A stretch of 64,000 nt of DNA from Candidatus Melainabacteria bacterium 17Bon1m (lineage in GTDB: Bacteria > Cyanobacteriota > Vampirovibrionia > Obscuribacterales > Obscuribacteraceae). Positions 49,180 to 64,000 of the stretch are shown piece by piece. The position numbers and the translations under genes are program-made. Position 1 is the stretch's first letter. Each line of letters begins with the position of its first letter. Below the pieces are notes generated by a model. It had not been told where the DNA came from, searched no databases, and saw nothing but the letters and a program-made list of their open reading frames with translations. Location: NCBI GenBank assembly GCA_032128875.1, contig JAVLKG010000003.1:321008-385007 (forward strand), given 5' to 3'.

Positions 49180-50121
49180 TTGGACTGCATGATTCTAGAA
49201 AAGCAATGGTTTCCTAGTCCGGTTTCTCAGCCACTGGGAGTTTCAAGCATTCTTCAGCGAAGTCTCGCTACCTACATTGCCAATTTGGGGTTTTGCTCGA
49301 AGCTGTTTTTGCTTCCTGCAGTTGTCTTAGTCGTCAGCGGTTTGCCTTTTACTCTTTTTTCGCATGCTGCTCATGCCAACAAAGACCATCTTTCAATTGC
49401 ACTGATGTGGGGCTGGTTTTTGTTCATGCAGATACCGCTTTATTACAGCTGTGCAGTGCGCGGCACGATTCTGCAACGCTTAGCGCTTTTGCCGAATGAG
49501 GAGTTTGTGCCTGCCGCTGCTTACGCAAATAGGTTTTGGTGGATGCGTAGCTCAGCCAGTGTGGCCAGAGATATTTTTCAGATTGCCGGGTTCATATTGC
49601 TCGGAGGAATTGGGGTTGCCGGATGGTTCATTTTCGGCGCGTTTTCTCCAGCCTTTTTTGCACTTGCAGCAGTGCTTTCCGCGCTCATGTGCTTCGCTTG
49701 GTTCTCGTGCGAATTCCTTCACATGTGCTTTTCCGTGTCAGTTGCAGCAGAAGAAAAGCGATTTGGACAACATTGGCGCAGCGCGCTCGCACTTTTCCGC
49801 AGGGCATTCTGGCGAGGAAGTAACTTTCAGGTGCTGCTTTTCGTGCTCTATTTCGCAATAAGCATGCTGTTTAATCCAGTCACTCTCTACTACCTTCCCC
49901 AGGTTGGAGAACTTGGGTTGTGGGGTTGCATGTTTCCACAAAATCCTCCGCTTCTGGTGGCGTTATTTCGCGATTTGTTCAGTGTTTTCAACACTTTAGT
50001 GGGCTTTCCGATTTTCTACATCTGCGCGGCATATTTTATTCACGATCTGCGTGTGCGCAACAATTTACCGCTCTTGGTCGGAGAAAACGGCCATGAGTAT
50101 GAGCCCCTACTGCCATCATGA
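49180..50121 (+). CDS. hypothetical multi-pass membrane protein
   Basis: About 6 hydrophobic segments; pattern PLGVSSIL...HDLRVR seen in glycerophosphodiesterase-type membrane domains. Confidence 0.65.
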   Translation: MDCMILEKQWFPSPVSQPLGVSSILQRSLATYIANLGFCSKLFLLPAVVLVVSGLPFTLFSHAAHANKDHLSIALMWGWFLFMQIPLYYSCAVRGTILQRLALLPNEEFVPAAAYANRFWWMRSSASVARDIFQIAGFILLGGIGVAGWFIFGAFSPAFFALAAVLSALMCFAWFSCEFLHMCFSVSVAAEEKRFGQHWRSALALFRRAFWRGSNFQVLLFVLYFAISMLFNPVTLYYLPQVGELGLWGCMFPQNPPLLVALFRDLFSVFNTLVGFPIFYICAAYFIHDLRVRNNLPLLVGENGHEYEPLLPS

Positions 50122-50184
50122 AGTCTGGGGCGAGTTACAGTTTTTCTCTGGTTCTTAGGCAAGTCTGTCTTTCAGATATTGAAA

Positions 50185-50661
50185 CTAAGCGGCTTTCTTC
50201 TTTTTGCCGGACATCGCGATAGATGCGACTGCGAGCAGCATTGCGGTGCCCAGAATTGGTTGCGAGAGGTGATGCAGCTTGTCGAATTTTGCTCCAACTT
50301 CTGCGTCTGTCTTCATTTGTGGCAGCATCTCAGCCATCGGTGCTGTTAGTCCGAGCGCGAACACGAGAACGAGAATCGCGCTAGCAATGCTGGTTCCATA
50401 TCTTGCGAAAGTGCATTTGCTCTTTTCTGGGTTGGTGAAAAAGTCTGCGACTTCACTAACGATGAGTGCAATTGCGGCCCCCAGCGCCAGTTTGCTGAAG
50501 TGGATAAATAGCGGTGCATTTGCTAACCCGATTGTGGCTTTATCAAGTCCCGCTGCGTGCCCTTCTTTTGCGATGTTTACTACGACAAAAACTATGGCTA
50601 CCGATCCGCCGAAGATTATTGACAGGGCGAGAAGGCGCAATGTTTCTACGAGTTTGTTCAT
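50185..50661 (-). CDS. four-helix membrane protein (DUF4149/TMEM205-like)
   Basis: Four TM helices ending FDKLHHLS; start at ATG 50661. Confidence 0.65.
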   Translation of the reverse strand: MNKLVETLRLLALSIIFGGSVAIVFVVVNIAKEGHAAGLDKATIGLANAPLFIHFSKLALGAAIALIVSEVADFFTNPEKSKCTFARYGTSIASAILVLVFALGLTAPMAEMLPQMKTDAEVGAKFDKLHHLSQPILGTAMLLAVASIAMSGKKKKAA

Positions 50662-50878
50662 GAATTGATACCTGCTGGATTTGGTGGACTTGCTGGGATT
50701 GTCGGCTACTAGCCAACACCCTATCCCGGTCATGCAAACGGCATGAAAGCTCGGCTTCGGTAACTTCAAGAAGTGCTACCATTGCCTTCTCGGTCCACCG
50801 GGGACATTTTACATCCTTGGCAACGAGTGCAATTTGGCACAGGGTCGTGTTATGACACTGGTCTAACGATAGAGACCG

Positions 50879-52105
50879 ATGACTGGCAAGCATCTCCACG
50901 TTTTTCCACAAGAAGCGACTGTTCAATTGGGACAAGTCACTTATTCTGCGGTGGTGGAAAAACCTGATGGGCAAAAGGAAAAACTCTGGTATCGTCTGCC
51001 TGAAGCGTATCTCGATGCAATCGATGACAGCGCCGACTATCTAGTGATAGCTAACATCTTTCAGGCGATGGAAGCAGGTGTGGACTGCCGCGTTCACGGT
51101 AGAGTGTCGAGTACTTTGTTGCGAAACGTGTCTGAGTTTCAAAGCCTCTGGGCAACCTGGTTTCCAGAGCGCTACAAGTGCGTGGACATTATTGCTGATA
51201 TTGAAGATGGTCCCAATATTTACGGAAATGGTTCGAATCACTCAGGTGACGAACATGGCGGAGCAGCTGTTTTGAATGCGGCAATTGCTGCATATACAGG
51301 CGGAATCGACAGCTCCTACACTGTTATGCGACACCATCGAAAACTATGCGGGCGAATGACTCAACCTTTGCGCGCTTGTCTTTTCGTGCATGGATTCGAC
51401 ATACCCTTGCCAGATGAGGATGCGTTTCGGCGGGTCGAAGAACGGCTAAAGAAGACTCTTTTGGATACGAACCTTGAATTAATTCCAATGGCAAGCAATC
51501 ACAAAGAATTAAATCAACAATGGGATCACACTCACATTGCCGGCGTCGCATCTTGCCTTATGTTGCTGAGTAAACGCTTCGATAGAGCCCTCATCGGAAG
51601 TACATTTACGTATCACGAAGCGTCCATGAAGTGGGGCAGCAACCCTATTTCCGACCGCCTGCTTTCCAGCCACAGGATGAGTTTCTTTCATGATGGTGCT
51701 GAAACCGGGCGCGGTGGAAAAATGGTGGCGCTGCGCGATTGGCCTGAAGCATATGATGATTTGCGCATATGCTGGAGCGCTGCCAACAAGGACGAAAATT
51801 GTGGAACGTGCGGAAAGTGCGCGTTGAGTTTGCTGGGCTTTAGGTATAAAAATCTTCCCTTGCCGAAGTCCTTTCCTTCGGGTCTTTCAGAATCAATGAT
51901 CGAAAATCTGGTCTTTGACGAATCGCATTTGGGAGCTGCCGAAACACTCTTGAAGTTTGCATTGAGAGAATCAGAGCAAGCACCGTGGGTAGCGGCACTA
52001 AAGAAGTGCGTGAAAACCAATCAGGAACGATTGGGCGCCACGAATAGCGGCAAAGGTACATTCTATAGCCGTGTGAAACGCAGGCTTGGTCGCCTTACGC
52101 AGTAA
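50879..52105 (+). CDS. QueC-like adenine-nucleotide alpha-hydrolase (PP-loop) protein with CxxCxKC motif, copy 1
   Basis: AYTGGIDS (SGGxDS variant), FVHGFDI, WGSNP and RIC...NCGTCGKC. Function unknown. Confidence 0.65.
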   Translation: MTGKHLHVFPQEATVQLGQVTYSAVVEKPDGQKEKLWYRLPEAYLDAIDDSADYLVIANIFQAMEAGVDCRVHGRVSSTLLRNVSEFQSLWATWFPERYKCVDIIADIEDGPNIYGNGSNHSGDEHGGAAVLNAAIAAYTGGIDSSYTVMRHHRKLCGRMTQPLRACLFVHGFDIPLPDEDAFRRVEERLKKTLLDTNLELIPMASNHKELNQQWDHTHIAGVASCLMLLSKRFDRALIGSTFTYHEASMKWGSNPISDRLLSSHRMSFFHDGAETGRGGKMVALRDWPEAYDDLRICWSAANKDENCGTCGKCALSLLGFRYKNLPLPKSFPSGLSESMIENLVFDESHLGAAETLLKFALRESEQAPWVAALKKCVKTNQERLGATNSGKGTFYSRVKRRLGRLTQ

Positions 52106-52119
52106 TTTTAGGATCATTC

Positions 52120-52172
52120 GTAGGGGCGGCGCATGCGCCGCCCTGGCAGGGAGCCGCATGCGGCTCCCCTAC
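52120..52172. repeat. 53-bp GTAG-type REP-like double-hairpin element
   Basis: GTAG-GGGCGGCGCATGCGCCGCCC-TGGCA-GGGAGCCGCATGCGGCTCCC-CTAC; both 20-mers are perfect palindromes. Confidence 0.85.
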
Positions 52173-52205
52173 TTTAAAGTGTTAACGACCGACATCGCTA
52201 AGGTG

Positions 52206-53006
52206 TTAAAGTCCGACGCCCAGAGCCAGCAAGGCGCATTTGTCCAAGCCGTCAAAACCTAGAGATGAATTGATTTCTGAGTCTACGAATCCCGCGGTTG
52301 CACAGACGCAAAGTCCGAGTGCGTTTGCAGTCAAATAGATGTTTTCTGAGACGTGACCGGCATCCATTAATCCGAGCCTGTATGCTCTAATGGTGTATTT
52401 CTCCGCCAGGCGAGCCATATCGCAAGACAGAATCAGTACAGCGCCAGCGTCGCCAAATTCGACTTGAAGAATTCCGAATTCCTTGAGCCAGGTCGAGAAA
52501 TTGCCTTTTTTCTTTAACACGAGTTCGTGCTTGCGCCGATCAAATCTATAGATCCCCGGCTCAACTCCTTCGATATTTAAAACAAATAGGTCTATTTGGG
52601 TTGAAGCTAATCCGCCTGCGGAGGGGAAGTTGAAGCCAGCCCCGTAACTCGTTTCTGTTTTGTCGGAAGCTTCAGTCGCCTGCGTACGTGCGCCATTTGC
52701 AAGATACAATACCTTTGCTAAATGCGACACTGGAAGAGCTTTGTTGGAAAAACTCTTCTTGCTCGTTCGATTCGTGATTGCTGTTTGTACTGGCATATCT
52801 GCACTTACAGCATTTACATCGAGTTTGATTCGCACTTCTTGCGCAGCACCTTCGACCGTCTTTTCGGCGGTCTCGCTGCCTAGAGGTGAAGCACTTCGTT
52901 CATAGTTCATCTCATAAGATGCGCGGTTCCATTTCGCAGCCTTTTTGTTACAGCTTTCAGTGTGGTAGACATCGGCGCTTGAGCCGGGATTGTGGATTAG
53001 TTTCAT
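52206..53006 (-). CDS. SagB/ThcOx-type FMN-dependent azoline dehydrogenase (cassette A)
   Basis: NRTSKKSF, PSAGGL, GIYRFD, KY..RAYR, DAGHVSENIYL and GFVD. Confidence 0.9.
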   Translation of the reverse strand: MKLIHNPGSSADVYHTESCNKKAAKWNRASYEMNYERSASPLGSETAEKTVEGAAQEVRIKLDVNAVSADMPVQTAITNRTSKKSFSNKALPVSHLAKVLYLANGARTQATEASDKTETSYGAGFNFPSAGGLASTQIDLFVLNIEGVEPGIYRFDRRKHELVLKKKGNFSTWLKEFGILQVEFGDAGAVLILSCDMARLAEKYTIRAYRLGLMDAGHVSENIYLTANALGLCVCATAGFVDSEINSSLGFDGLDKCALLALGVGL

Positions 53007-53008
53007 AC

Positions 53009-54316
53009 TTATGGAAATGGATGTGCGTCGTGGTTGAAGTCTTTTGCAGAACGTTGAGTTGGAGTGTCATTGCATAAACGTGGGCAAGCGAGCCAGCGCA
53101 CTTTGTGAGCGACAATCAAAGGCACCATTTCCGGTACCGTCACTTTGACGCACACGCCAAGTTCGCTGGCTTCGGTCGAGGTGAGATCGCTCCACATAAC
53201 GGTCAATCCAATTTCTTCCAGGCGTCTTGCGACGTTTGCCAAATCCTCCATGGAATGTGGCGCCTGAAGCCAATCTCTGTCCTTATAGTCTTGCAGTGTA
53301 ATTTCATTCGTATTGTCTTTTAGAAGGAAGTCCAACGCTGGACTATTGGGCCAATTTGCATAGAGATTGGCGTGGTCGGAAAATGATTTGACCCAATCGA
53401 ATTCGGTAAATGACTGAACCACTGCATCGCTTCCAAATTTATGTTGCGCAAAACGTATTGCCATCGCTTCGTCGATCGCGCCGCAGCATGCGATTTCAGC
53501 ATCTTCATGGGCCGATGCACCGGCAACATAATATGGAAAGCGTTCGCTTTCTAATACGCAAAATACTGCCGGTATCGGAAAGTCGCGCGTCATGCTGAAA
53601 ATGTTTACTCTTGTCCCGCTCTTTTCTATAAGTGAGATGCGCTGCCCAAGCTCTCGCCCGACAGATTCCTTTTCTATGCGCAATTTTGGTATAGAAACTT
53701 TATTGAGCCAAAAGATCATCATCTGATCTCTTTCGGCAAGTTCGAGCAAACCTGACCAGATCGCTTGTACTCTATTGCTGTAGAACGAAAGTCCGGCAGA
53801 AGTGGGAAGAGCGATGAGCGGTTCTGGAGCTTTCGCCCAGAACGACATGTGCACAGTGCCTGCGGGAATCCAGTAATCCTTTCCGTCGCTTCCGTCCTTC
53901 AAACGTTTTGCCGGTGTATGAGTTAGAAGTGTGTCGTCTGCATAGCCGATACCTGGACCTTTGAAGCTGTCGCTGCATGTTTCATCGGGCAAGCAATAGG
54001 GAAACAGTTTCAAAAGCTCGCTATCCCCTGCTTTCATCTGTCGCAGTTCCGCTGAGTGCAGTGAGTTGTAGCCCGTATAACGCTCGACTGCTTCACCTAG
54101 TGCACGCAGCATTGCTTCGTTGGGATCCAGCGAACAGCCCAAAGCATTGGGCGTGTCGGCAGTAAAAAACTTTCCTATCGTTCGAACCAGGTCGCCTTGG
54201 TACAGCCACCACGGCGGTTCTGGTCGCTCCAGGCGCATTCCCCGAAAGCGTGTAATCGGTCCGAACCGGGGGTTTACCCAATTCAAAACCGGTGCAAGCG
54301 GTCCTGGGCTATGCAT
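53009..54316 (-). CDS. YcaO cyclodehydratase (cassette A)
   Basis: ALGEAVERY, SAGLS, GLLELAERD and C-terminal HPFP; start reassigned to ATG 54316, overlapping the stop of the E1-like gene. Confidence 0.92.
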   Translation of the reverse strand: MHSPGPLAPVLNWVNPRFGPITRFRGMRLERPEPPWWLYQGDLVRTIGKFFTADTPNALGCSLDPNEAMLRALGEAVERYTGYNSLHSAELRQMKAGDSELLKLFPYCLPDETCSDSFKGPGIGYADDTLLTHTPAKRLKDGSDGKDYWIPAGTVHMSFWAKAPEPLIALPTSAGLSFYSNRVQAIWSGLLELAERDQMMIFWLNKVSIPKLRIEKESVGRELGQRISLIEKSGTRVNIFSMTRDFPIPAVFCVLESERFPYYVAGASAHEDAEIACCGAIDEAMAIRFAQHKFGSDAVVQSFTEFDWVKSFSDHANLYANWPNSPALDFLLKDNTNEITLQDYKDRDWLQAPHSMEDLANVARRLEEIGLTVMWSDLTSTEASELGVCVKVTVPEMVPLIVAHKVRWLACPRLCNDTPTQRSAKDFNHDAHPFP

Positions 54317-55448
54317 ATGCAGAGTCTCTTTCCGGCTGCACGTCGCCACGGACATCAACCGCGCCACTGAAACAGTCAGGGCATCGTGCAACCTTTTTGA
54401 CTTTGAGTTGCTCGGTGTGTCCATCAAAAGTGTTGAATATCACTGCTCCTAATGTGACAGGCAAGCTGATCTTGGTTATCGCTCTAATAACTTCCATAGA
54501 AATTTGCGCACCTCCTGCGGTGGCAAAGGCCAGGGATTCTCCCTGCATTGGTCTTTCGCTCTTAGGCAAGGATTCTATATGCTGCGAATAGAGGGATTCT
54601 TCGATAGGGTGATCGCTAGCGCTGCGCGTGCGCAAGACATAGCACGTGTAGCAAGCTGTATCGCGAGGCACTACGAGTGGACCGATTTCGAGTTCTACCG
54701 CACTCTCATTTGCGCGCAGCCAATCAATTGGCGTTTCGAGCGAAATTTGGTTGATGCGGTTGAAAAAGCTTTGAGGTGCGTTTCGCGTAGCTGTGACCAA
54801 AAGATCTGCTGTGTCTACTTTCGATTCAATTAATTCGGCAAGGGTGTCGAGGGTGTCGGCATGGGTATAGCTAGTCTGCATGCCATTGTTTTGCGCATCT
54901 TCAACTAATTTCTTTAGGTCTGTGTTGTTAAGTCTGTCGATCACTTCAATTGTATTGATGCCCGATCGGTGCAGAATATCGAACGTGCAGCATCCTAAAA
55001 GCCCGTCGGCGACAAGAACTATCTTCGCTCCCTTCAGTTTGCTTTCCACTTCTTTGGCTGATGTATTGTTGCGCGTAAAACCAAGTTTTCTACCCCAGAA
55101 TAAGCGCTGTTTCGCGTCCAGCCCTTGTTTGCCTGTCTCTACCGATGCCTCTTTCGTCTCGGCATCGACCAAATAGCCCTTTCTAACGAGCAGTAATAGC
55201 AGCTCTTCAATCTCAGCCTCATGTGAGCCAGCTGGGCGACTTTTGACGATGTTTTCCAATGATGTCTTTTGCTTAAGTTCGCCAATTAGCCAGGGCATCA
55301 AGCCGACTGCAAGCCGCCCGCGCACTACAAGATTTGTCGCGCCACCGCGCACTTGCATCCCCAACCCGTCAGGCATTTCGAAGACGTCGAGGTCATCAAC
55401 CAGGGTTGGTTTCTTGGGAAAGCGTAAGTTCGGGTCTTTGATAGTCAT
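54309..55448 (-). CDS. E1/ThiF-like YcaO partner (TOMM leader-binding C protein) with N-terminal RRE-like domain (cassette A)
   Basis: N-terminal wHTH-like region ending LVRKGYL; Rossmann-like IVLVADGLLG; IGPLVVPRDTACYTC...RCPDC. Confidence 0.88.
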   Translation of the reverse strand: MTIKDPNLRFPKKPTLVDDLDVFEMPDGLGMQVRGGATNLVVRGRLAVGLMPWLIGELKQKTSLENIVKSRPAGSHEAEIEELLLLLVRKGYLVDAETKEASVETGKQGLDAKQRLFWGRKLGFTRNNTSAKEVESKLKGAKIVLVADGLLGCCTFDILHRSGINTIEVIDRLNNTDLKKLVEDAQNNGMQTSYTHADTLDTLAELIESKVDTADLLVTATRNAPQSFFNRINQISLETPIDWLRANESAVELEIGPLVVPRDTACYTCYVLRTRSASDHPIEESLYSQHIESLPKSERPMQGESLAFATAGGAQISMEVIRAITKISLPVTLGAVIFNTFDGHTEQLKVKKVARCPDCFSGAVDVRGDVQPERDSAYA

Positions 55449-55501
55449 TTTGATTCTCTTGTAGATTGCCGATCTTACAAGCTTTTATGGGGTGTAAGAA
55501 G

Positions 55502-55536
55502 AAAAAATGATAGCCAGTTTAGTGACTATCATTTTT
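55502..55536 (-). terminator. stem-loop with U-tract between precursor genes and modifying enzymes
   Basis: Minus strand ATGATAGTCA-CTAAAC-TGGCTATCAT-TTTTT (one G-U pair). Confidence 0.6.
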
Positions 55537-55560
55537 GAATGATTGAATTTGTCTCAGCTT

Positions 55561-55761
55561 TTAGAAATCTGCCAATGGTGTCGGCGGCACGAATTCGCAG
55601 CCATCGCAGGCGCACGGTCCTTTCGGAACTGCCATTTTCTGATTGCGTTGCGAGATGGTTTCAACAACCAGCAATTTCTCAACATCAGTGTTGTTCAGAT
55701 AGTTGAGGTAATCGGCTTGGAAGTCTGCAGTTTCGGTGATTGTGTTCTTTAGAGATGACAT
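55561..55761 (-). CDS. RiPP precursor peptide A3 (66 aa; C-terminus GPCACDGCEFVPPTPLADF)
   Basis: ATG 55761 with AGGGG RBS; paralogous to the two upstream peptides; directly before the E1-YcaO-SagB genes. Confidence 0.85.
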   Translation of the reverse strand: MSSLKNTITETADFQADYLNYLNNTDVEKLLVVETISQRNQKMAVPKGPCACDGCEFVPPTPLADF

Positions 55762-55783
55762 CTTTTGCCCCTGTTGTTTGCTT

Positions 55784-55987
55784 TTAGAACTGAAAATCTG
55801 GTGTTGGGGGTTGGAATTGGCAGCCGTCGCATGCGCAGGGACCCGACGGCTTGGCCATGCGCTGATTGCGCTGAGAAAGGGTTTCAGCGACAAGCATCTT
55901 ATCGAGTTGTTCGTTGGCGTTCAGATAGTTCAAATAATCTGATTCGAACTCGTTTGTCTGGCTTGTAGTTTGATTTTTGGCTGACAT
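55784..55987 (-). CDS. RiPP precursor peptide A2 (67 aa; C-terminus GPCACDGCQFQPPTPDFQF)
   Basis: ATG with AAAGGG RBS; conserved leader DYLNYL...LVAETLSQ. Confidence 0.85.
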   Translation of the reverse strand: MSAKNQTTSQTNEFESDYLNYLNANEQLDKMLVAETLSQRNQRMAKPSGPCACDGCQFQPPTPDFQF

Positions 55988-56010
55988 TTTGATGCCCTTT
56001 CTGAGTGTTT

Positions 56011-56211
56011 TTAGAAACTAAAATCTGGCTGCGGTGGTTGAAATGTGCAGTTGTCACATGCACACGGACCCGATGGCTTGCTCACGGTTTGTTGTTGCTG
56101 AGAGAGAGTCTGAGCAACAAGGGCTTCGTCAGCGCCTTGTTTGAAATCGAGATAGGTTTGGTAATCTTGCAGAAATTCCAAAGCTTCGTTTGACTGAAAA
56201 TTGTTTGACAC
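56011..56211 (-). CDS. RiPP precursor peptide A1 (66 aa; C-terminus GPCACDNCTFQPPQPDFSF)
   Basis: GTG 56211 with GAGGG RBS gives the same length and alignment as A2 and A3. Confidence 0.85.
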   Translation of the reverse strand: MSNNFQSNEALEFLQDYQTYLDFKQGADEALVAQTLSQQQQTVSKPSGPCACDNCTFQPPQPDFSF

Positions 56212-56294
56212 AGCTTCCCTCTCTATTAATGATGGCCACTTATCCCTGGCCGCCGAAAGCATATTATCTTATTGACAATCTTGGTGGCGTAACA

Positions 56295-57704
56295 GTGGGC
56301 GCGGAATTCGGCGATAATGCAAAAGGTTACGAACCGGACAGCATCGCAGTGAGTCCAGATTCCACCCCGGACCTTAACTCCCCGACGGGACAAGAAAGAG
56401 CGACCGGGAAATCAAATTCAGCTATTGATTCGCTCTTTTCCTTCTTTCTGCTGTCGGAAGATGGATTAGATGCGCTGAGCCGAATAATGGGCTTGCTTTC
56501 GATTTACACGTGTTTCGAAATCTTTAAAAGGCTTAATTGGTTAAGAGCGGAGTATCAAGTCGAATCCTGGTGGTGGCGGGACCAGTGTCTTGCGTTGCCT
56601 GATTCTGAAACCCTGGCCATTATTTTGCTTTCCATCTGTGCCATCGCCGGACTTGCGATGGTGTTCGGCGTAAGAAGTAAGCTGGCGCCAGCCGTGGTGG
56701 CATTATGCGTCTTGTACCTGACATGTTTGGACGTGAATATTGCATTTCCGCATAGCTTTTTTCTTGCCATTTGGGTTTGTGTGGCGTTGATCTTCAGGCG
56801 CGCCAGAAGGTCCGCAACCCGCCGCCTTATCCAGCTTGCTTTGTTCGCTTGTTATTCGCTTTCCGCCCTGCAAAAGATCTTTACCCCGCAGTTTATTCAA
56901 GGGGATTCGCTTGCGGCATTGAAATACGGACCCAACCTGGATGCCTGGGTCTTGAAGGCTGTCAGCCAGATTCCCAGTTCGTCGGGATTGTGGCAGCTTT
57001 TCGCAATCGTCGTCGTTGTTGTCGAACTCGCTCTTGCGCTTGGCCTGTGGCATCCGAAGACTCGCAAGTTTGCTGTCGTTGGCATCATTGTGTTTCAGTC
57101 GCTGATTCTTCTGACCATGGATCCGCGCATTCTGCCTCTTCACTTGATGATCTGTCTTTGCTGTCTTTCCTTTGTCAACCCAGTTGCAATTGAAAAGCGA
57201 TTTGCATGGCTGACGAATAGAGTCGAAGCGTCCGCCGGTTCTCTTGCTGGTTTGAAAGAGCTGGACTGTAAGCCACCAGGGGTGGTGTACACAACACTTA
57301 CCATTCTCGCCACTGGGATCTTCTTTGCTATCCCATTAAGGATTTATCTCTATCCGAACGCATTCGAGCAAATGTCGATGATGGACAGGCGTCCATGGAC
57401 ATTTTGCATGTTTGTGTGTTTGGAAGGGCGGTACAAGACAAGCATTGTCTTGAAACGAAAAGACGGCAATCTAGTCTGGGTTGAACCACGCGGAAGAATG
57501 GCTTACTTGTCCAGCGACACTGACATGCTGGCGTTAGCAAAGTATCTGGAAAAAACATATCCAGGCGTTTTGGAAATCAAAATAGAGTCGCAATACGACG
57601 TAAACATGACCAGCCGAGACCACAAGGTTCTCACGGCGCAAGCTTGTGATATCGGAGGCTTTAAACACCGAATAAGCTGGCACAGAGAGGCTTTAAAATA
57701 CTAG
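56295..57704 (+). CDS. HTTM-domain (vitamin K-dependent carboxylase-like / SdpB-like) membrane protein with C-terminal soluble domain
   Basis: LIQLALFACYSLSALQK...G and VELALALGLWHPKTRKFAV match the HTTM pattern. Start uncertain (GTG 56295 chosen). Confidence 0.75.
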   Translation: MGAEFGDNAKGYEPDSIAVSPDSTPDLNSPTGQERATGKSNSAIDSLFSFFLLSEDGLDALSRIMGLLSIYTCFEIFKRLNWLRAEYQVESWWWRDQCLALPDSETLAIILLSICAIAGLAMVFGVRSKLAPAVVALCVLYLTCLDVNIAFPHSFFLAIWVCVALIFRRARRSATRRLIQLALFACYSLSALQKIFTPQFIQGDSLAALKYGPNLDAWVLKAVSQIPSSSGLWQLFAIVVVVVELALALGLWHPKTRKFAVVGIIVFQSLILLTMDPRILPLHLMICLCCLSFVNPVAIEKRFAWLTNRVEASAGSLAGLKELDCKPPGVVYTTLTILATGIFFAIPLRIYLYPNAFEQMSMMDRRPWTFCMFVCLEGRYKTSIVLKRKDGNLVWVEPRGRMAYLSSDTDMLALAKYLEKTYPGVLEIKIESQYDVNMTSRDHKVLTAQACDIGGFKHRISWHREALKY

Positions 57705-58630
57705 TTACGCATGCCAAGTTTTTTCAGCGCTACATAGGAAATTTGCTTGGCTAGCCTGGGAGCGCTTGCAAGAATCTGCTCTGAGTGTTGTGCCTGTTTT
57801 TCGAGTGTTTCATACTGTTGCAAGAGATCGTGAAACTCCTTGCTTAGCTTCTCATAAGTCGCTTGTCTGGTATCAACTTCTGGCTTCACGTAATTTTGAG
57901 TCTGCATATTTTTGATCATGCCTTCAAGCATTCGAGGCAAATGCTCCTTTGTAGACTCAAGATGTTGAAGAAGTACTTTTAAAAATTCGAGGTCCAGCGT
58001 TTTGACGTTTTGGCTCCAGGAATCAGAGTGCCTGCGATAAAAGTATAAGGGCTCAGGATGGTAAGCAAATTTAGTGCCGATTTCTAGAAGCGAAATCCAA
58101 AATTCAGTGTCCACAATTGCTTTTATGTTCTTGTATCCACCAACTTTGTCATAAGATTCTCGCTTTAGAAGCAGAGTGTTGTGTGGATAGTGTCCTGAAA
58201 TAATATCTCCCAGGTCGGCGCTAGGCTTATACACATAGTTGTGAATGCCGAAGACTTGAACATCGCTAAAGGCAGCAGAAGCATTGTTTTCGTTCATCAC
58301 TTTGAGCGTCGCTTCAATGTAGTTTGGTGCGATTAAATCATCGCTATCCAGTGGCAGTAGCAGCTCTCCATTGCTGTTGCGGGCTGCGGTATTTCGAGTT
58401 TCACCATTCCCGCGGTTGGTTTCATGGCGGAAAATCCTGATGCGGGGATCGCTGAAATTTGCCAGCACTTCATCAGCTGGGCAAACAGGAGAACAATCAT
58501 CGACAATGACGAGTTCCCAGTTTTGATAAGTCTGTGCGACCACGCTGTTGACGGTTTCCACCAGATAATTGCCAAGTTTGTAATACGGAGTAAGTATGCT
58601 CACTAGTGGTTGAGCTGTAGTCGTTTTCAT
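57701..58630 (-). CDS. GT2 glycosyltransferase with C-terminal coiled coil (paralog 2)
   Basis: VSILTPYY, SVVAQTY, VDDCS, LDSDD, DTEFW and PLYFYR. Confidence 0.9.
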   Translation of the reverse strand: MKTTTAQPLVSILTPYYKLGNYLVETVNSVVAQTYQNWELVIVDDCSPVCPADEVLANFSDPRIRIFRHETNRGNGETRNTAARNSNGELLLPLDSDDLIAPNYIEATLKVMNENNASAAFSDVQVFGIHNYVYKPSADLGDIISGHYPHNTLLLKRESYDKVGGYKNIKAIVDTEFWISLLEIGTKFAYHPEPLYFYRRHSDSWSQNVKTLDLEFLKVLLQHLESTKEHLPRMLEGMIKNMQTQNYVKPEVDTRQATYEKLSKEFHDLLQQYETLEKQAQHSEQILASAPRLAKQISYVALKKLGMRN

Positions 58631-58638
58631 TGCTCGAT

Positions 58639-59559
58639 TTACCGCAACCCCGCCTTTTTCAAGGAAACATACGAAAGTTGGCGCGTCAGTTGCGGCAGGC
58701 TCGCCAGCATTTCTTCATTGCGCCTGACACGTTTTTCCAAACTTTCATACTTTGCTCTCAGGTCGGCGTATTCTGATTGCAAATGAGAAATTTCCGAGTC
58801 GATTTGGCTGGTGCTTTGTGCGGCATAGTAAGCCGCCTTCTGCTCTATCCATTTTTCGAGCACGACTTCCAAGTGTTGGGAAAGTGAATGATGATGTGAA
58901 AGCAAGACTTCCAGAAAATCTTTCGCGACTGCTGAACCTCGCATGCGCATGAGTCCATCTTCATGAGTGCGATACAGATAGAGGGGCTCTTCCACGAATG
59001 CGAATTTAACGCCTGATTCGATTGCTGAAATCCAAAACTCAGTATCTTCGATTGCAGCAATGGGCTTGTAGCCACCTACTGAGTCATAGACTTCTCGCTT
59101 CATTAGCAGTGTATTGCAGGGATAATGCCCTGAAAAAATGTCGCATAGGCGTGTGCTGGGCGTGTAGATAAAATCGAATTTTCCGAAGTACTTTACTTGC
59201 GAGTAAGCGGCTGATGATCCCGTTTCTCCCAAGGCTCTCAACATTTTTTCGATGTAGGTCGGCTCCAGCAAGTCGTCTGAATCGAGTGGCAATAGATATT
59301 CGCCTTTGCTGTTTGAAGCGGCAGTGTTGCGCGCTGCCGATACACCTAGATTTGAATCGTGCCGCAATAAGCGGATGCGCGGATCGGTTTGCTGCGCAAG
59401 TACAGAGGTTGCCGACATTTCTGGAGAGCAATCGTCAACAACAAGGAGTTCCCAGTTTTGGTAAGTTTGCCTCTTGACTGACTCAACTGCTTCGACCAGG
59501 AACTGACCAAGTCGGTAGTAGGGCATCAAAATGCTGATGAGAGGTTGGTTCGACTGCAT
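58639..59559 (-). CDS. GT2 glycosyltransferase with C-terminal coiled coil (paralog 1)
   Basis: ISILMPYY, VDDCS, GVSAARN, LDSDD and EDTEFW. Confidence 0.9.
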   Translation of the reverse strand: MQSNQPLISILMPYYRLGQFLVEAVESVKRQTYQNWELLVVDDCSPEMSATSVLAQQTDPRIRLLRHDSNLGVSAARNTAASNSKGEYLLPLDSDDLLEPTYIEKMLRALGETGSSAAYSQVKYFGKFDFIYTPSTRLCDIFSGHYPCNTLLMKREVYDSVGGYKPIAAIEDTEFWISAIESGVKFAFVEEPLYLYRTHEDGLMRMRGSAVAKDFLEVLLSHHHSLSQHLEVVLEKWIEQKAAYYAAQSTSQIDSEISHLQSEYADLRAKYESLEKRVRRNEEMLASLPQLTRQLSYVSLKKAGLR

Positions 59560-59711
59560 CTTTGGATATCCTCTGTCTGCTGTACTTTAAAGAACCCGCT
59601 ATTTCAACAAGTTAGTTCTGTGTAATTTTGGAGTTTTATCTTTTTCAATTGACACTCGACATCAGGCCAAGTGGTTAGCATTGTGGATAGGGGTCATCCA
59701 GGAGTTCTAGT

Positions 59712-59966
59712 ATGGGTTTTCGCAAGTCATTCAGTAGCGGCTATCTCGGTTACGTGAAAGCTACAACGCGTTCCAGTGCAGAGGGTCTACAGTCCTTTGC
59801 TTTGGGTCAAAACAATTCGAATTCGCAAGGCTTTTCGGCAGCTGGTCCATGCTCTTGTGCTTGCACATGCCCTTGCGCATGCGCCAGCTCCTGCTCATGC
59901 GCTTGTACTTGCCCATGTGCCTGCGGCAGTAGTTGCTTTACTCCTCCTGCTCCTACAGATAACTAA
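59712..59966 (+). CDS. RiPP precursor peptide B (84 aa; core 2 x CSCACTCPCAC[AG]SS plus C, then FTPPAPTDN)
   Basis: AGGAG RBS; leader FSSGYLGYV, GP junction and FxPPxP tail shared with A1-A3; directly upstream of the second E1-YcaO-SagB set. Confidence 0.88.
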   Translation: MGFRKSFSSGYLGYVKATTRSSAEGLQSFALGQNNSNSQGFSAAGPCSCACTCPCACASSCSCACTCPCACGSSCFTPPAPTDN

Positions 59967-60033
59967 GCCAGCTGTCTCTATCTTCTAAAGCACCGGGCAT
60001 CGTAAAATGAATCTTGCCCTGTGAGCGTATGTC

Positions 60034-61176
60034 ATGCCAGAGAAGGACAATAAGAAGGCGCTTTCCTTTTTGAAGGAAGGCGGCACTAACTTTCCGAAGC
60101 GGCCAAAACTAGTGGAAGACGTCCTGGTCTTTCACATGCCGGACGGTTTGGGCATGCAATTTCGCGGACTATCCAGCCCTGTTGTATTGCGGGGGGCACT
60201 TGTCGAAGCGCTGCTTCCAAAGCTATTGCCCTTGCTGAATGGAGAGCATGAGATTTCGCAGCTGTTTGAGAAGTGCGGCGCAGAATTTGAGCCCGCTGAT
60301 GTGGCGGCCCTTCTTTTGAGTCTTTTTACCCGTGGGGCAATTGCAGAGGCGGAAGCGGAAAGATATCCCCAGGCTGTTGTTGATAGAAAGACTCTGCTCT
60401 TTCATGGAAGAAGGTTAGGCGTAACTCGCAATAACAATTCTTCTTCGCAAGTCGTGAAGAAGTTATCGCGCGCTCACATTGTGGTAATTGCCGATGGATT
60501 GCTTGGTGCAAGCACCATCGATTTGTTGAGTCGATCCGGTTTTGAGAAGATTTCCGCAGCAGCTCTAAAATCAAGTACAGATGCAGCTGAAATTTTTTGC
60601 GAATTGCAGAGCGAATTCAACGTCGAGTACATCGAAGGAAACGAGAACGGCATCAAGAACTTCTTGCACGGGCGCCAGGAATCAGCCGACCTTGTATTAG
60701 CAGCACTACGCAATGTGCCGCAATCTCTCTTTGTCGCGCTCAATGAAGAATGCGTTCAAGCAAATGTTGAATGGTTGCGCGCTTACGACAATGGCAGTGT
60801 TATAGAGTTGGGTCCTTATGTAAACCCGCACGATACCGCGTGTTTTGAATGCATGCTTGTGCGTGAAATTAGCGCCGGCGAGCATTCTGTAGAGGAAGAG
60901 CTTTATCAGAAATTTCTTGAAGAAGGCAGGTCTACCGATTTTATGTGCGGTGAGTCGATAGCGCTGGCAACTCAGGCTGCTGCATACTTGACCCAGGAAG
61001 CCGTGCGAATAGTCACTGCCATTGAAAAACCTCAGTTGGACGGACGCGTACTTAGCTTTCACTCGGATGGTAACATCGATCAAAATACCTTCACACGCGT
61101 GCCGCGATGCGAAGTGTGCGCACGAGCCGGAGCCTTGGTTTTGCCGGAGAAAGAGCATGCCAGTAAGCTCTCGTGA
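60034..61176 (+). CDS. E1/ThiF-like YcaO partner with RRE-like domain (cassette B)
   Basis: Paralog of 54309-55448 (MPDGLGMQ.RG, LG.TRNN, ADGLLG); LGPYVNPHDTACFEC...RCEVC. Confidence 0.88.
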   Translation: MPEKDNKKALSFLKEGGTNFPKRPKLVEDVLVFHMPDGLGMQFRGLSSPVVLRGALVEALLPKLLPLLNGEHEISQLFEKCGAEFEPADVAALLLSLFTRGAIAEAEAERYPQAVVDRKTLLFHGRRLGVTRNNNSSSQVVKKLSRAHIVVIADGLLGASTIDLLSRSGFEKISAAALKSSTDAAEIFCELQSEFNVEYIEGNENGIKNFLHGRQESADLVLAALRNVPQSLFVALNEECVQANVEWLRAYDNGSVIELGPYVNPHDTACFECMLVREISAGEHSVEEELYQKFLEEGRSTDFMCGESIALATQAAAYLTQEAVRIVTAIEKPQLDGRVLSFHSDGNIDQNTFTRVPRCEVCARAGALVLPEKEHASKLS

Positions 61177-62476
61177 AAAACTGGGAAGCCTTGCTTCGGT
61201 TTTGGATCTGGTCGATGACAGGTTCGGTCCGGTTAAGAGCATCTACGGCATAAAGACGACCGGGAAACAACCGCCATTCTGGGTTTTTCACGCTCAACTG
61301 ACGCGCCCTTTGGGACAGTATTTTGTTGATTATGACTGTGACGCTTGGGGCTCTTCCGTCGACAAGGATGAAGCCTTGTTCAAATGCCTGGGTGAAGTTC
61401 TCGAGCGTTACTGCATGTACAACACCTTTTTAACCGGAGAATTTGCGCAGCTTCCGGCATCTGAATGCCAATTGCTCAGGCAGTTTCCACGTTGTGCTCC
61501 TGACGAGAGATGCGCCGATTCATATAAGGAAATATCGCCAGACTGGACTTTGACGATGGCATCCGTCAAGGAAGTTGCAACAGGTAATGCCCATTGGATT
61601 CCCGCAGGCTACGTAGACTTTTCCTATCAGTCTCCTGAAGGCGAGCCAAGAGTGACACTGTCGCATTCGTCCGGTTCGGCATTCCATGAAAATCTTCACC
61701 GAGCAATATGGGCTGGGCTCTGCGAAGTTGCTGAAAGAGACGCATTTTCGCTTTTTTGGCTGAACCAATATTGCGCCAAAGAGATAACTTTTGATCTGAA
61801 TTTCGGCAGCGATACTGCAGAATTAAATTCCCTGGCAAAGCGACTGAAACTCATTAAAGACTCAGGATTGCGAGTTCGCAGCTTTGATATTACGACTGAT
61901 TTTAGAGTCCCGACGGTTTTTTCAGTCGTTCAGGGCGATGAATTTCCGTTTGCCACTTTTGGTGCCTCTTGCTCTGCAGATCCTGTGAAGGCTGTAATTA
62001 AGTCGATTGATGAAGTCTTTCTGGTGCGCTTAGCACAGCTCAGTGGTGAAAAGGAGGTTCTCGATGCTCCGTCTTATACAGACTTCTCCTGGGTTAATCA
62101 ATTGCGCGATCACTGCGATCTTTACGCTAGGTGGCAAGACACTCCAGCATTCGATTTCTTCATGAAAAAGTCGGAGACCATCTCGCTTTCAGAGTTACGG
62201 CAAATGAGCTGGTGGTCCGAGCCTGACAGTTACGAGCAGCTGCGCGATACATGTGCGATGCTTCAAGAGCGCCTTGGCATGACGGTTTTGTTTATGGACT
62301 GCACGCTTGATGATGTATCAAAATTTGGAGTTGGAATCAAAGTTGTGGTCCCGCAAATGCAGCCGATCAGTGTGCCAGAGTCGCTCAAATGGTTGGCGCA
62401 CTTGCGCCTCGCTCAGCATGCTGAAAGACTATCGCTCAAGTGTGCGAGCAATCCTTACCCGCATCCATTTCCATAG
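61157..62476 (+). CDS. YcaO cyclodehydratase (cassette B)
   Basis: LGEVLERY, SSGSA, GLCEVAERD and C-terminal PYPHPFP; start reassigned to ATG 61157. Confidence 0.92.
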   Translation: MPVSSREKLGSLASVLDLVDDRFGPVKSIYGIKTTGKQPPFWVFHAQLTRPLGQYFVDYDCDAWGSSVDKDEALFKCLGEVLERYCMYNTFLTGEFAQLPASECQLLRQFPRCAPDERCADSYKEISPDWTLTMASVKEVATGNAHWIPAGYVDFSYQSPEGEPRVTLSHSSGSAFHENLHRAIWAGLCEVAERDAFSLFWLNQYCAKEITFDLNFGSDTAELNSLAKRLKLIKDSGLRVRSFDITTDFRVPTVFSVVQGDEFPFATFGASCSADPVKAVIKSIDEVFLVRLAQLSGEKEVLDAPSYTDFSWVNQLRDHCDLYARWQDTPAFDFFMKKSETISLSELRQMSWWSEPDSYEQLRDTCAMLQERLGMTVLFMDCTLDDVSKFGVGIKVVVPQMQPISVPESLKWLAHLRLAQHAERLSLKCASNPYPHPFP

Positions 62477-62484
62477 GTAGACAA

Positions 62485-63267
62485 ATGCGAATTACAGAAA
62501 GGAAAATGGCTGCAGACCTCGCTTGTGACTATCACACAGCGAGCAATAATTCTCCATGGCTGCTGAAGTTGCCTGTGATTCGTCAGGTCAACTACAGCGA
62601 GCACGTTCAAGAATTGATGGATGAAGGTCCGAGGCAAATCGATTCGGTAACAGATGTTCGAACTTTTCAGCAAGTTGCCGAGACATCTGAAATGACTTTG
62701 CTAGAGGCGCTTGCGCGCAGAAAAAGCTCACGGGAATTTTCTAAAGTTGCTCTGGATTTGCAAAAGTTGGGTCAATTACTCGGACTTTCTAATGGGCTGC
62801 GCAACAAAGTAGGCAATGCCAATGACGGAGGGAGAAACGCTCCCAGTGCCGGGAGCCTTTGCTCTTGTGAAATGTATGTGTTGGCGCTGAACGTCGCTGA
62901 TCTTGAAAAAGGTATTTACCACTATGATGTGGGCGCTCATGGATTGAAGAAGATCAAACTCGGCGATTTCAAAGAATGGTCGAAGCGAATGCTTCTTCTG
63001 CAGTCGGAATTGTGCGACTCTGCGGCGTTGATTTTTCTTGCCAGCAATCAAGGACGCTTGCGCAGCAAATATGGTCCTCGCGCATATAGACTGGGTTTAC
63101 TGGATGCAGGGCATGTTTCTGAGAACCTCTATCTGGTGTCAGCTGCGCTCAATCTTTCAGTGACAGCTACGGGTGGTTTTATTGATGATGAGATAAATCA
63201 TTCGCTCGGCTTGGACGGAGTCGATGATTGCGTAGTGCTTGTTCTGGCGGTTGGTGAACCGGGCTGA
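62485..63267 (+). CDS. SagB/ThcOx-type azoline dehydrogenase (cassette B)
   Basis: RRKSSREF, RNAPSAGSL, GIYHYD, KYGPRAYR and DAGHVSENLYL. Confidence 0.92.
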   Translation: MRITERKMAADLACDYHTASNNSPWLLKLPVIRQVNYSEHVQELMDEGPRQIDSVTDVRTFQQVAETSEMTLLEALARRKSSREFSKVALDLQKLGQLLGLSNGLRNKVGNANDGGRNAPSAGSLCSCEMYVLALNVADLEKGIYHYDVGAHGLKKIKLGDFKEWSKRMLLLQSELCDSAALIFLASNQGRLRSKYGPRAYRLGLLDAGHVSENLYLVSAALNLSVTATGGFIDDEINHSLGLDGVDDCVVLVLAVGEPG

Positions 63268-63271
63268 GCAG

Positions 63272-64000
63272 CTAATATGGCGGCTTTCCAAACAGGGCTT
63301 TTATTCTCTCGCTGGTCTGTTTTAGTCCGTGGTGAATTGTATTCTTCGGCCTTAAGCGTTGCCGATTAGTCGCTATCAAATCGGAGAGCTGATTGCGAAA
63401 CGGTAGTCTGTTGCCTATTTTCAGAAGGGTTTCTAATGCCTCGAGATGAACCTCGTCAAGTTCTTCAATATCTTGAAAAACATCTTCAGACAGCGCTTGT
63501 GGAAATGAGCAAGGCGTCGGAAGCTGCAACATGCTGATAAGCATTAGTGTGATCAAGCACTTTCCGCACCGCCCGCAGTTTTGGTCTTTCTTCGGATTTG
63601 AGTAACAGACGCGAATTCGCTCGTAAGCTGTCTGCCATTCGCGCAAATGATAAAGCTTAGAGCCGCGATTCCAAATGGCACCATCATGGAAAATGGAAAA
63701 ATTTCTGCTGGACATTAGATGATCACTTGTCGGATTGCTGCCCCAGAGCGGCGCCAGGTCGTTGTAGCAGTAGGTGCCTGGAATAATTCCTTCGGAAAAG
63801 GTGCGCTTGAAAAATGTCAAACAAGATGCAATTCCGGCTGCATGCGTTTCATTCCAGTCAGGAAAGAGAAGGCGATGATTGGACTGAATTGGATACAGAG
63901 GCACGCCGACAGACTTGAGCGTGTCTTGATTCGTCCTGAACGCTCGTTGGTAAGCCTCTTCATCTTCCAGCGGAATGTCAAAGCCATGCACAAAAAGCGC
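63272..64000 (-). CDS. QueC-like CxxCxKC protein, copy 2 (5' end beyond window)
   Basis: Frame open to 64000 (ALFVHGFDIPL...); collinear with 50879-52105 (WGSNP, FHDGA, NCGRCGKC). Confidence 0.7.
   Translation of the reverse strand, partial: ALFVHGFDIPLEDEEAYQRAFRTNQDTLKSVGVPLYPIQSNHRLLFPDWNETHAAGIASCLTFFKRTFSEGIIPGTYCYNDLAPLWGSNPTSDHLMSSRNFSIFHDGAIWNRGSKLYHLREWQTAYERIRVCYSNPKKDQNCGRCGKCLITLMLISMLQLPTPCSFPQALSEDVFQDIEELDEVHLEALETLLKIGNRLPFRNQLSDLIATNRQRLRPKNTIHHGLKQTSERIKALFGKPPY

Follow-up and report, generated by a model that had tools for sequence, protein, structure and literature searches.

A probable linear azole-containing peptide precursor with an alternating-cysteine core in Candidatus Melainabacteria

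We analysed a stretch of 64,000 nucleotides from Candidatus Melainabacteria bacterium 17Bon1m (contig JAVLKG010000003.1; hereafter, the window) around a small open reading frame (ORF) at 59712-59966 on the plus strand, which we call precursor B and which encodes 84 amino acids and a stop codon. We consider it probable that this ORF is translated into the precursor of a linear azole-containing peptide (LAP), that is, a peptide that is ribosomally made and modified after translation (RiPP), of the thiazole/oxazole-modified microcin (TOMM) type, in which, judging by the neighbouring enzyme families, most of the 13 cysteines would be heterocyclised. The features of a LAP/TOMM precursor were found: a small ORF on the same strand beside the genes for a cyclodehydratase, a partner with a RiPP recognition element (RRE) and an E1-like domain, and a SagB-type dehydrogenase, and within the ORF a conserved leader followed by a Cys/Ser/Thr-rich core.

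A duplicated alternating-cysteine core

The translation of precursor B reads MGFRKSFSSGYLGYVKATTRSSAEGLQSFALGQNNSNSQGFSAAGP, then CSCACTCPCACASS, CSCACTCPCACGSS and CFTPPAPTDN. A Shine–Dalgarno-like AGGAG, read from the sequence, stands 7 bases 5' of the ATG (59700-59704, plus strand). The leader of 46 amino acids (MGFRKSFSSGYLGYVK...LQSF...SAAGP; 59712-59849, plus strand) was delimited at an invariant AGP-C junction, which is a putative cleavage site. The core of 38 residues contains 10 Ser/Thr and 13 Cys, the latter in C-X-C spacing within 29 residues. It consists of two units of 14 codons, both on the plus strand and in frame with the ORF, recognized by sequence, codon comparison and Tandem Repeats Finder (unit 1, CSCACTCPCACASS, 59850-59891; unit 2, CSCACTCPCACGSS, 59892-59933), and of a C-terminal tail (59934-59963, plus strand) that carries the 13th Cys and a C-F-x-P-P-x-P motif common to the A-type precursors described below. 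Precursor B is present as a single copy in the genome of the window.

The original prediction had counted nine synonymous, four identical and one non-synonymous pair among the 14 codon pairs of the two units, and these counts are exact. Unit 1 (TGC TCT TGT GCT TGC ACA TGC CCT TGC GCA TGC GCC AGC TCC) and unit 2 (TGC TCA TGC GCT TGT ACT TGC CCA TGT GCC TGC GGC AGT AGT) agree in 13/14 residues (93%), the only replacement being GCC/GGC (Ala/Gly), and in 30/42 bases (71%). Tandem Repeats Finder reports the repeat at 59850-59929 (period 42, score 104, 78% matches, 1.9 copies). When the 16 non-Cys residues of the 28-residue stretch were shuffled with the Cys fixed, an identity of 13/14 was reached in 13 of 200,000 shuffles; the repetition of the unit therefore exceeds what Cys-X alternation itself gives. 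Among the 13 synonymous pairs, four identical codons were observed against 5.08 expected for independent draws under local codon usage, indicating that synonymous sites have been fully randomised between the units, so selection against DNA repeats need not be assumed to account for the 'recoding'.

A search of 61 related genomes returned strong matches to precursor B (E 5e-20 to 6e-41) in 5 of the 12 other genomes of the genus. The six orthologues (G000, G003, G007, G008, G010 and G011), which give 15 pairs for Nei–Gojobori estimates, all have a GGAG/AGGA word 10-12 bases 5' of the start. Their alignment holds 13 invariant positions in the leader (M1, R4, K5, F7, S8, Y11, Y14, L26, Q27, S28, A44, G45 and P46) and 17 in the core or tail; the 13 leader positions hold in all 7 sequences aligned. 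Across all 15 pairs, the rate of non-synonymous change (dN) over the whole ORF was 0.10-0.49, and that of synonymous change (dS) was at least 1.1 or not computable (proportion of synonymous differences, pS, at least 0.75). The dN/dS ratio of the core, where computable, was 0.02 (G000/G003), 0.08 (G000/G011 and G003/G011) and 0.12-0.15 (comparisons with G008), and that of the leader was 0.09-0.52; by this measure the constraint on the core is at least as strong as that on the leader, which is unusual for a RiPP. Because amino acids were kept while synonymous sites became saturated, and because the orthologues share their neighbours, these data show that precursor B is a real gene, selected in the 59712-59966 frame. 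The conservation of the duplicated core in protein while its DNA drifted is solid, and its main use is as proof that this small ORF is a real gene.

The B-type gene occurs in 6 of the 13 genomes of the genus, in none of 91 other genomes of the family and in none of 400 other sampled genomes of the phylum. In a class sample of 401 genomes, matches that span leader and core came from the six congeners only. Ten weak matches in that sample (E 3e-4 to 9e-3; G062, G021, G036, G078, G076, G123, G105, G066, G260 and G286) cover only the Cys-X part of the profile, five of them with internal stop codons, and they were left out of the membership calls. Weak profile matches outside the genus in G075, G022, G061, G474 and G592 were rejected as DNA microsatellites.

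A consensus scan of 59400-60200 returned 0 promoter and 0 terminator sites. Three runs labelled RNA-Seq (X2-X4), from the likely source sample, contain the stretch, in contigs that are one and the same 21-kb piece found in that sample's DNA run; contigs from these runs cover operons on both strands evenly, and some reach 137 kb. Because they assemble like DNA, they are indistinguishable from DNA and offer no evidence of transcription. DNA near-identical to 50000-64000 was found in runs from 10 studies, among plankton, aquifer, drinking water, seawater and oil-facility metagenomes.

An old duplication under purifying selection in a translated ORF had been proposed, and the orthologues bear this out. 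G000, G003 and G011 have the two-unit layout in common, down to the Ala/Gly difference at unit position 12, and the heptad CTCPCAC occurs twice in five species. In G007, the two heptads differ synonymously in 5/7 codons. The six units of G000, G003 and G011 are identical pairwise in 27-37 of 42 bases and group neither by species nor by unit. Because the layout or heptad is common to these species and synonymous sites are saturated, we infer that the internal duplication is older than the divergence of at least five species and that selection on the protein has preserved both copies, in line with the core dN/dS of 0.02-0.15. The comparison of repeat number in orthologues, suggested at the outset as a check, gave a divided answer: the heptad is indeed duplicated in five species, but the copies lie 14 residues apart in G000, G003 and G011 and 10 apart in G007 and G008, whose core reads CSCFC[ED]CSCPCTCPCACSC[SG]CTCPCAC[GN]SSCF, and the core of G010 (CTCSCGCSCACFCTCPCFSSCSCGSSCF) has no such duplication.

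Azole-forming enzymes, precursor relatives and alternative readings

Directly downstream of precursor B, on the same strand, lie genes for a set of azole-forming enzyme families. The C protein (380 amino acids; 60034-61176) joins an N-terminal RRE-like domain to an E1/ThiF-like domain: it matches TIGR03882, labelled 'TOMM precursor leader peptide-binding protein' (46.2 bits; cut-off 36.9), and PF00899 (32.7 bits). Its AlphaFold model (mean predicted local distance difference test score, pLDDT, 65.6) has strands (24-52) and helices (55-99) ahead of the E1-like fold, and Foldseek aligned it over its full length with MccB (E 6e-15 over 378 columns), TruD (5e-12) and LynD (1e-11). The YcaO cyclodehydratase (D; 61157-62476; PF02624, 163.8 bits against a cut-off of 25.7) is nearest in sequence, among solved structures, to the YcaO domains of MusD, LynD and TruD. 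In its longest form, from 61022, the YcaO ORF shares 155 bases with the end of the C gene (61022-61176); the ATG at 61157 is the likelier start and would give a 20-base overlap and a protein of 439 amino acids. The flavin mononucleotide (FMN) dehydrogenase is of the SagB type (B; 62440-63267; TIGR03605, 130.8 bits against a cut-off of 78.4); its nearest solved structures are 3eo7, CyaGox and a SagB-type chain, and the BmdC oxidase was also matched. With GT2 standing for family 2 glycosyltransferase genes and PP-loop for an ATPase gene described below, 5/5 orthologous loci preserve the sequence of genes GT2-GT2 / precursor / C / YcaO / SagB / PP-loop / GT2, as do the metagenomic loci L052-L055 as far as the contigs reach.

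In the pathway that we propose, the leader motif F-x(3)-Y-x-x-Y-[VL]-K ... LQSF ... AGP would dock on the RRE/E1-like C protein, which would present the core to the YcaO cyclodehydratase. This enzyme would phosphorylate or adenylate the amide before each Cys and close the X-Cys units to thiazolines, and the SagB-type dehydrogenase would oxidise these to thiazoles. Full processing would yield 13 thiazoles with one alpha-carbon unit between each, and Ser/Thr residues next to Cys could add oxazol(in)es. The earlier count of up to 13 possible thiazoles is correct, and the enzyme set that would make them is encoded directly downstream. A predicted complex of the C protein with leader residues 1-52 scored 0.00 in both runs; the controls were also not folded, so the prediction carries no information on binding.

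Precursor B belongs to a wider family. Three tandem A-type precursor genes of 66-83 amino acids lie on the minus strand at 55561-56262 (56011-56262, 55784-55987 and 55561-55761) and are homologous to it; their cores (CACD[GN]C.F.PP.P...) share the invariant pattern GPC-x-C-D-[GN]-C-x-F-x-P-P-x-P. An hhalign comparison of precursor B with the A type (probability 84.9%, E 6.4e-6) aligned the leader motif F-x(3)-Y-x-x-Y-L, the GPC junction and the C-terminal C-F-x-P-P-x-P, so that precursor B resembles an A-like core extended, between junction and tail, by a long Cys-X array. A profile of seven close precursor sequences, run against 1.84 billion representative proteins (E<=1e-3), returned 11 proteins, nine of which have the same leader and Cys-X cores: three close orthologues, of which two have their annotated start at an internal Met, and six distant members with shorter Cys-X cores, such as CSCACICTCICICTCCFTPPPDENS, CTCQCICECNCTCACLLQPEP and CACPCGDGGNDFTPQDPAGN. 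P0010, a V-C repeat, has no matching leader and was rejected as a family member, and P0009 (1964 amino acids) was left out of the nine.

Searches with the C protein found related loci in metagenome-assembled genomes of Candidatus Melainabacteria or Obscuribacterales and, farther away, in Actinomycetota. Similar leaders (Y-x-x-Y-[LV]) adjoin C-protein homologues in L049, L058, L064 and L065 and in the actinobacterial loci L050 and L051. Their cores are varied, with a single Cys directly after AG[PL] in L049 and L058, three Cys in L064, a Gly/Thr/Cys-rich sequence in L050 and L051, and seven alternating Cys in L065, where the precursor sits between a GT2 gene and the C gene. In a tree of 18 C proteins, the clade of the B type (12-15 Cys) is sister to that of the A type (3 Cys; support 89/92), with earlier branches for the 1-Cys types and an actinobacterial-like clade on the outside; L048, whose precursor is truncated where the contig stops, falls in the B-type clade.

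Cys counts are 13, 14, 13, 15, 15 and 12 in the six congeners, 7-9 in P0006, P0007, P0008, P0011 and L065, 3 in P0004, P0005 and the A type, and 1 in L049 and L058. B-type orthologues differ by alignment gaps of two residues, an argument of the kind that Haft made for the Cys-Xaa-Xaa unit of heterocycloanthracins (PMC2674419). These patterns point to a core that is one continuous, expandable (Cys-X)n array and not two cores. Such an array probably grew from a short, A-type-like CxC...C-F-x-P-P-x-P core through internal duplication and insertions or deletions of Cys-X units.

Separately, we observed a third precursor-like gene in G010 (contig C89; L042:9937-10218, plus strand) that shares the leader and has three AGPC modules (…GAGPCVKSIFDFTDAGPCNTFVPDFAGAGPCNSAPRR). 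It adjoins a PP-loop gene, a GT2 gene and two GT4 genes, with no C, D or B gene on its 16-kb contig, and could be a multi-module precursor independent of azole enzymes.

Several points weigh against assigning precursor B to a LAP pathway with extensive heterocyclisation. The precursor matches no Pfam family and, at E<=0.01, no NCBIfam family. The scores for TIGR03604 (SagD; 191.7 bits on the YcaO protein against a cut-off of 219.25) and TIGR03603 (47.4 against 187.65) are below their cut-offs, which marks the enzymes as divergent. A Pfam scan of 34 neighbouring proteins detected no protease or transporter family, which leaves leader removal and export unexplained. The tree of C proteins is midpoint-rooted only, so it does not fix the direction of array expansion. 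C-X-C motifs are also typical of metallothioneins. Finally, the conserved target of this enzyme clade may be the first Cys only, as L049 and L058 suggest, and the step from there to all 13 Cys is an inference.

The last point leads to the alternative that survives best, which is possible although we regard it as well behind an extensively processed LAP: a partly processed, thiol-rich peptide with one or a few azoles, for example at the invariant Pro-Cys junction, and with its other Cys free or modified in another way, such as S-glycosylation by the GT2 enzymes, for a metal-binding or redox role. We give it this weight because the basal relatives L049 and L058, with the same enzyme set, need only one Cys. 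GT2 genes are conserved beside the precursor in 6/6 congeners and in L053, L054 and L065, and the lack of an exporter or protease among the neighbours scanned fits an intracellular role. Against this, LAP YcaO cyclodehydratases usually process many Cys per core, as in microcin B17, heterocycloanthracin and plantazolicin, and the strict alternation of Cys with mostly small residues has the look of a repeated heterocyclisation unit. The best solved relatives of the GT2 proteins, too, are polysaccharide enzymes, with no peptide glycosyltransferase at E<=1e-5.

It is improbable that precursor B encodes an ordinary metallothionein-like peptide on which the adjacent enzymes do not act and whose place beside them is coincidental. 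The dense C-X-C spacing and the absence of a match to any curated RiPP precursor family would suit such a peptide, but a conserved 46-residue leader precedes the Cys array, the precursor-C-D-B order is kept in 5/5 orthologous loci, the leader is homologous to those of A-type precursors with a C-D-B set of their own, related leaders adjoin C-protein homologues in other lineages, and no metallothionein family in Pfam or NCBIfam was matched.

Still less credible is a multicore precursor from which the two 14-residue units are cut as two copies of one product. The original prediction had entertained such a cyanobactin-like release, to which the near-identity of the units (13/14) and the triple AGPC of the L042 gene, a hint that multi-module precursors may exist in the family, lend some colour. 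It is not supported here: precursor B has a single AGP junction, unit 2 abuts unit 1 without a spacer, recognition sequence or cleavage sequence, and the neighbours scanned include no recognised protease family, subtilisin-like or other. The period also varies, with CTCPCAC spaced by 14 residues in three species, by 10 in two and not duplicated in G010, and in G003 a Cys replaces the Ser at the unit border, giving an unbroken alternating run of 26 residues.

That the stretch is no gene at all, only low-complexity or microsatellite-like DNA open by chance, can be dismissed, for although the profile searches do recover true microsatellites that read as C-X repeats, those are exact DNA repeats without a leader, whereas here the copies are less alike in DNA than in protein, with a conserved leader and a dN/dS far below 1.

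If the whole array of this LAP precursor is processed, the outcome would be a regular, genetically encoded chain of 12-15 thiazole amino acids, with a simple repeat setting its length. It would offer a test case for YcaO processivity along a substrate, for the growth of RiPP cores by internal duplication and for the function of rigid poly-azoles in binding metal, DNA or gyrase.

The PP-loop ATPase and other neighbouring genes

Next to the azole-forming enzymes, on the minus strand, the window holds the 3' two thirds of a gene for a QueC/QatC-like PP-loop ATPase of 403 amino acids (63272-64000; full gene L015:280-1491), assigned by motifs and Foldseek. The gene is present in 5/5 orthologous loci and beside every A and B sub-cluster seen, and it also adjoins the L048, L049 and L058 loci and the L042 gene of G010. 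The motif [ST]GG[LIV]DS and the residues C293/C303/C306/C309 are invariant in 12 sequences of the family, which gathers 93 matches at E<=1e-5 and is otherwise unnamed. The model (pLDDT 80.5) is closest to QatC (9y01_B; Foldseek E 2.7e-6, TM 0.47/0.44), with further fold matches to QueC (3bl5), TilS, LarE and Cap9 (9nto_B), and PF06508 (QueC) scored 16.2 bits against a cut-off of 22. In one distant relative, P0092, a PqqD (RRE) domain is fused ahead of the PP-loop domain. No precursor-like ORF was found within ~1.5 kb of the other PP-loop paralogues in the genome.

The ATPase is like QatC and Cap9, of the QueC family, in its PP-loop motif and C-terminal Cys cluster. It is unlike them in that identity is only 13-15% and in that RiPP precursors, and no QatA/B/D genes or genes of cyclic oligonucleotide-based antiphage signalling systems (CBASS), were seen nearby. 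QueC-family proteins activate a carboxylate using ATP, and in CBASS they are reported to conjugate a 7-deazaguanine base to proteins. The PP-loop family, present beside each precursor with this leader that was examined, may be a new family of RiPP-tailoring enzymes, and the conserved ATPase and GT2 enzymes may tailor the peptide further. A literature search found nothing that links PP-loop or adenine nucleotide alpha hydrolase proteins with RiPP precursor peptides, and a review of the QueC family (PMC13329287) makes no mention of RiPP, YcaO, thiazole, glycosyltransferase or natural product.

On the other side of precursor B, and divergent from it, a GT2 glycosyltransferase with a coiled-coil tail is encoded at 58639-59559 (minus strand; PF00535, 107.7 bits), in an adjacency that is conserved, followed by a second, paralogous GT2 at 57701-58630 (minus strand), identified by Pfam and in orthologous loci. 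None of 18 solved relatives at E<=1e-5 is a glycocin-type peptide glycosyltransferase chain, and the named ones are all polysaccharide or teichoic-acid enzymes. The GT2 enzymes may glycosylate the peptide or serve a neighbouring glycan pathway. Beyond the window end lie a GT2 gene, a polysaccharide pyruvyl transferase gene and unrelated genes.

The A-type precursors have their own enzyme set on the minus strand (52206-55448), identified by NCBIfam and Pfam scans and comprising a C protein (54309-55448), a YcaO protein (53009-54427) and a SagB-like protein (52206-53006). A paralogue of the PP-loop ATPase, with 408 amino acids and 42% identity by sequence comparison, is encoded at 50879-52105 on the plus strand. 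The A set, counted as the three precursors, C, YcaO, SagB-like protein, 408-residue ATPase and a membrane protein of 504 amino acids, recurs in 3/5 other loci and is absent from L013 and L014, indicating that the B set stands alone.

The 504-residue membrane protein (56190-57704, plus strand) is encoded between the A precursors and the GT2 genes. Its look-alikes in the ESM Atlas are HTTM or vitamin K-dependent gamma-carboxylase-like (score 0.98; 28/30 matches), with a weak Pfam match to DoxX, and it travels with the A sub-cluster (L010-L012, L055, L056 and L064), with only fragments in L013 and L014. Between the 408-residue ATPase gene and the SagB-like gene lies a short dispersed repeat (52117-52173), at which contigs of four sequencing runs break or branch; a word of ~50 bases within it is common to many other contigs. 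About 16 kb upstream of the cluster, a tetratricopeptide repeat (TPR) protein with two retroviral-type aspartyl protease domains (42457-43719, plus strand) is the only protease-like gene near it.

A bolder and decidedly tentative proposal is that (Cys-X)n precursors, together with the QueC/QatC-like ATPase and the GT2 enzymes, might form an undescribed RiPP class of the Obscuribacterales (Melainabacteria). Its products would be oligomers of up to 15 thiazole amino acids, conjugated and/or glycosylated, with a length tuned by duplication of Cys-X blocks and a possible role as a chelator or as a nucleic-acid or gyrase binder. If true, a ribosomal oligomer of this length would be the longest regular azole array known, further conjugated by a carboxylate-activating ATPase like those that, in phage defence, link 7-deazaguanine to proteins. 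Apart from this proposal, the locus places an azole-peptide pathway, unusually paired with a QueC/QatC-like ATPase and with glycosyltransferases, in a little-studied, non-photosynthetic sister lineage of cyanobacteria. Our literature search, which included work on Melainabacteria with YcaO or thiazole biosynthetic gene clusters, found no description of the precursor B family.

Comparison with known azole-peptide systems

As far as can be judged from genes alone, the precursor B system would work like a LAP, and it shows the class-level features that can be checked in silico. It is like microcin B17, plantazolicin and streptolysin S in its leader-bearing precursor, E1-like/RRE partner, YcaO protein and FMN dehydrogenase, and in the several azoles predicted for a linear core. 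The cores of those peptides are Gly-rich (microcin B17), contiguous (plantazolicin) or poly-Cys (streptolysin S), whereas that of precursor B alternates strictly as Cys-X with up to 15 Cys. Unlike microcin B17, it has no McbE/F/G-type export or immunity genes and no protease among the 34 neighbours scanned. High Cys content and C-X-C spacing are shared with bacterial metallothioneins, from which the conserved 46-residue leader, the synteny with azole-forming enzymes and the absence of a match to metallothionein models set precursor B apart.

Patellamide-type cyanobactin products have an azole at every second residue, the pattern expected here, and precursors with repeated cores are known in cyanobactins; the YcaO protein and the oxidase are moreover nearest, among solved structures, to MusD, LynD, TruD and CyaGox. 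The system is nevertheless not a cyanobactin. Its heterocyclase is divided between separate C and D proteins, neither a PatA/PatG-type protease nor a macrocyclase turned up among the neighbours scanned, no recognition sequences flank the units, and the units adjoin each other and do not recur as such from species to species.

A further parallel is with heterocycloanthracin and sonorensin of Bacillus (TIGR03601). In two descriptions (Haft 2009, PMC2674419; Cox 2015, PMC4603692), the heterocycloanthracin core has a short repeated Cys-containing unit whose number varies between strains by insertion or deletion of whole units. Precursor B is not a member of this family: it has no match to TIGR03601, another leader and another host lineage, and its gene sits immediately upstream of those for its enzymes, whereas the genes for heterocycloanthracin precursors are remote from theirs. 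In the passages on heterocycloanthracin that were consulted, we found no counterpart to the conserved PP-loop and GT2 neighbours, and Cox 2015 does not use the words Melainabacteria, alternating or glycosyltransferase; its supplementary precursor lists could hold a similar core from another lineage. Taken together, precursor B resembles heterocycloanthracin in a core built of a repeated Cys unit, in the variable number of units and in its predicted processing by a C/D cyclodehydratase and a SagB-type dehydrogenase, with Cys-Xaa (period 2) as the unit in place of Cys-Xaa-Xaa.

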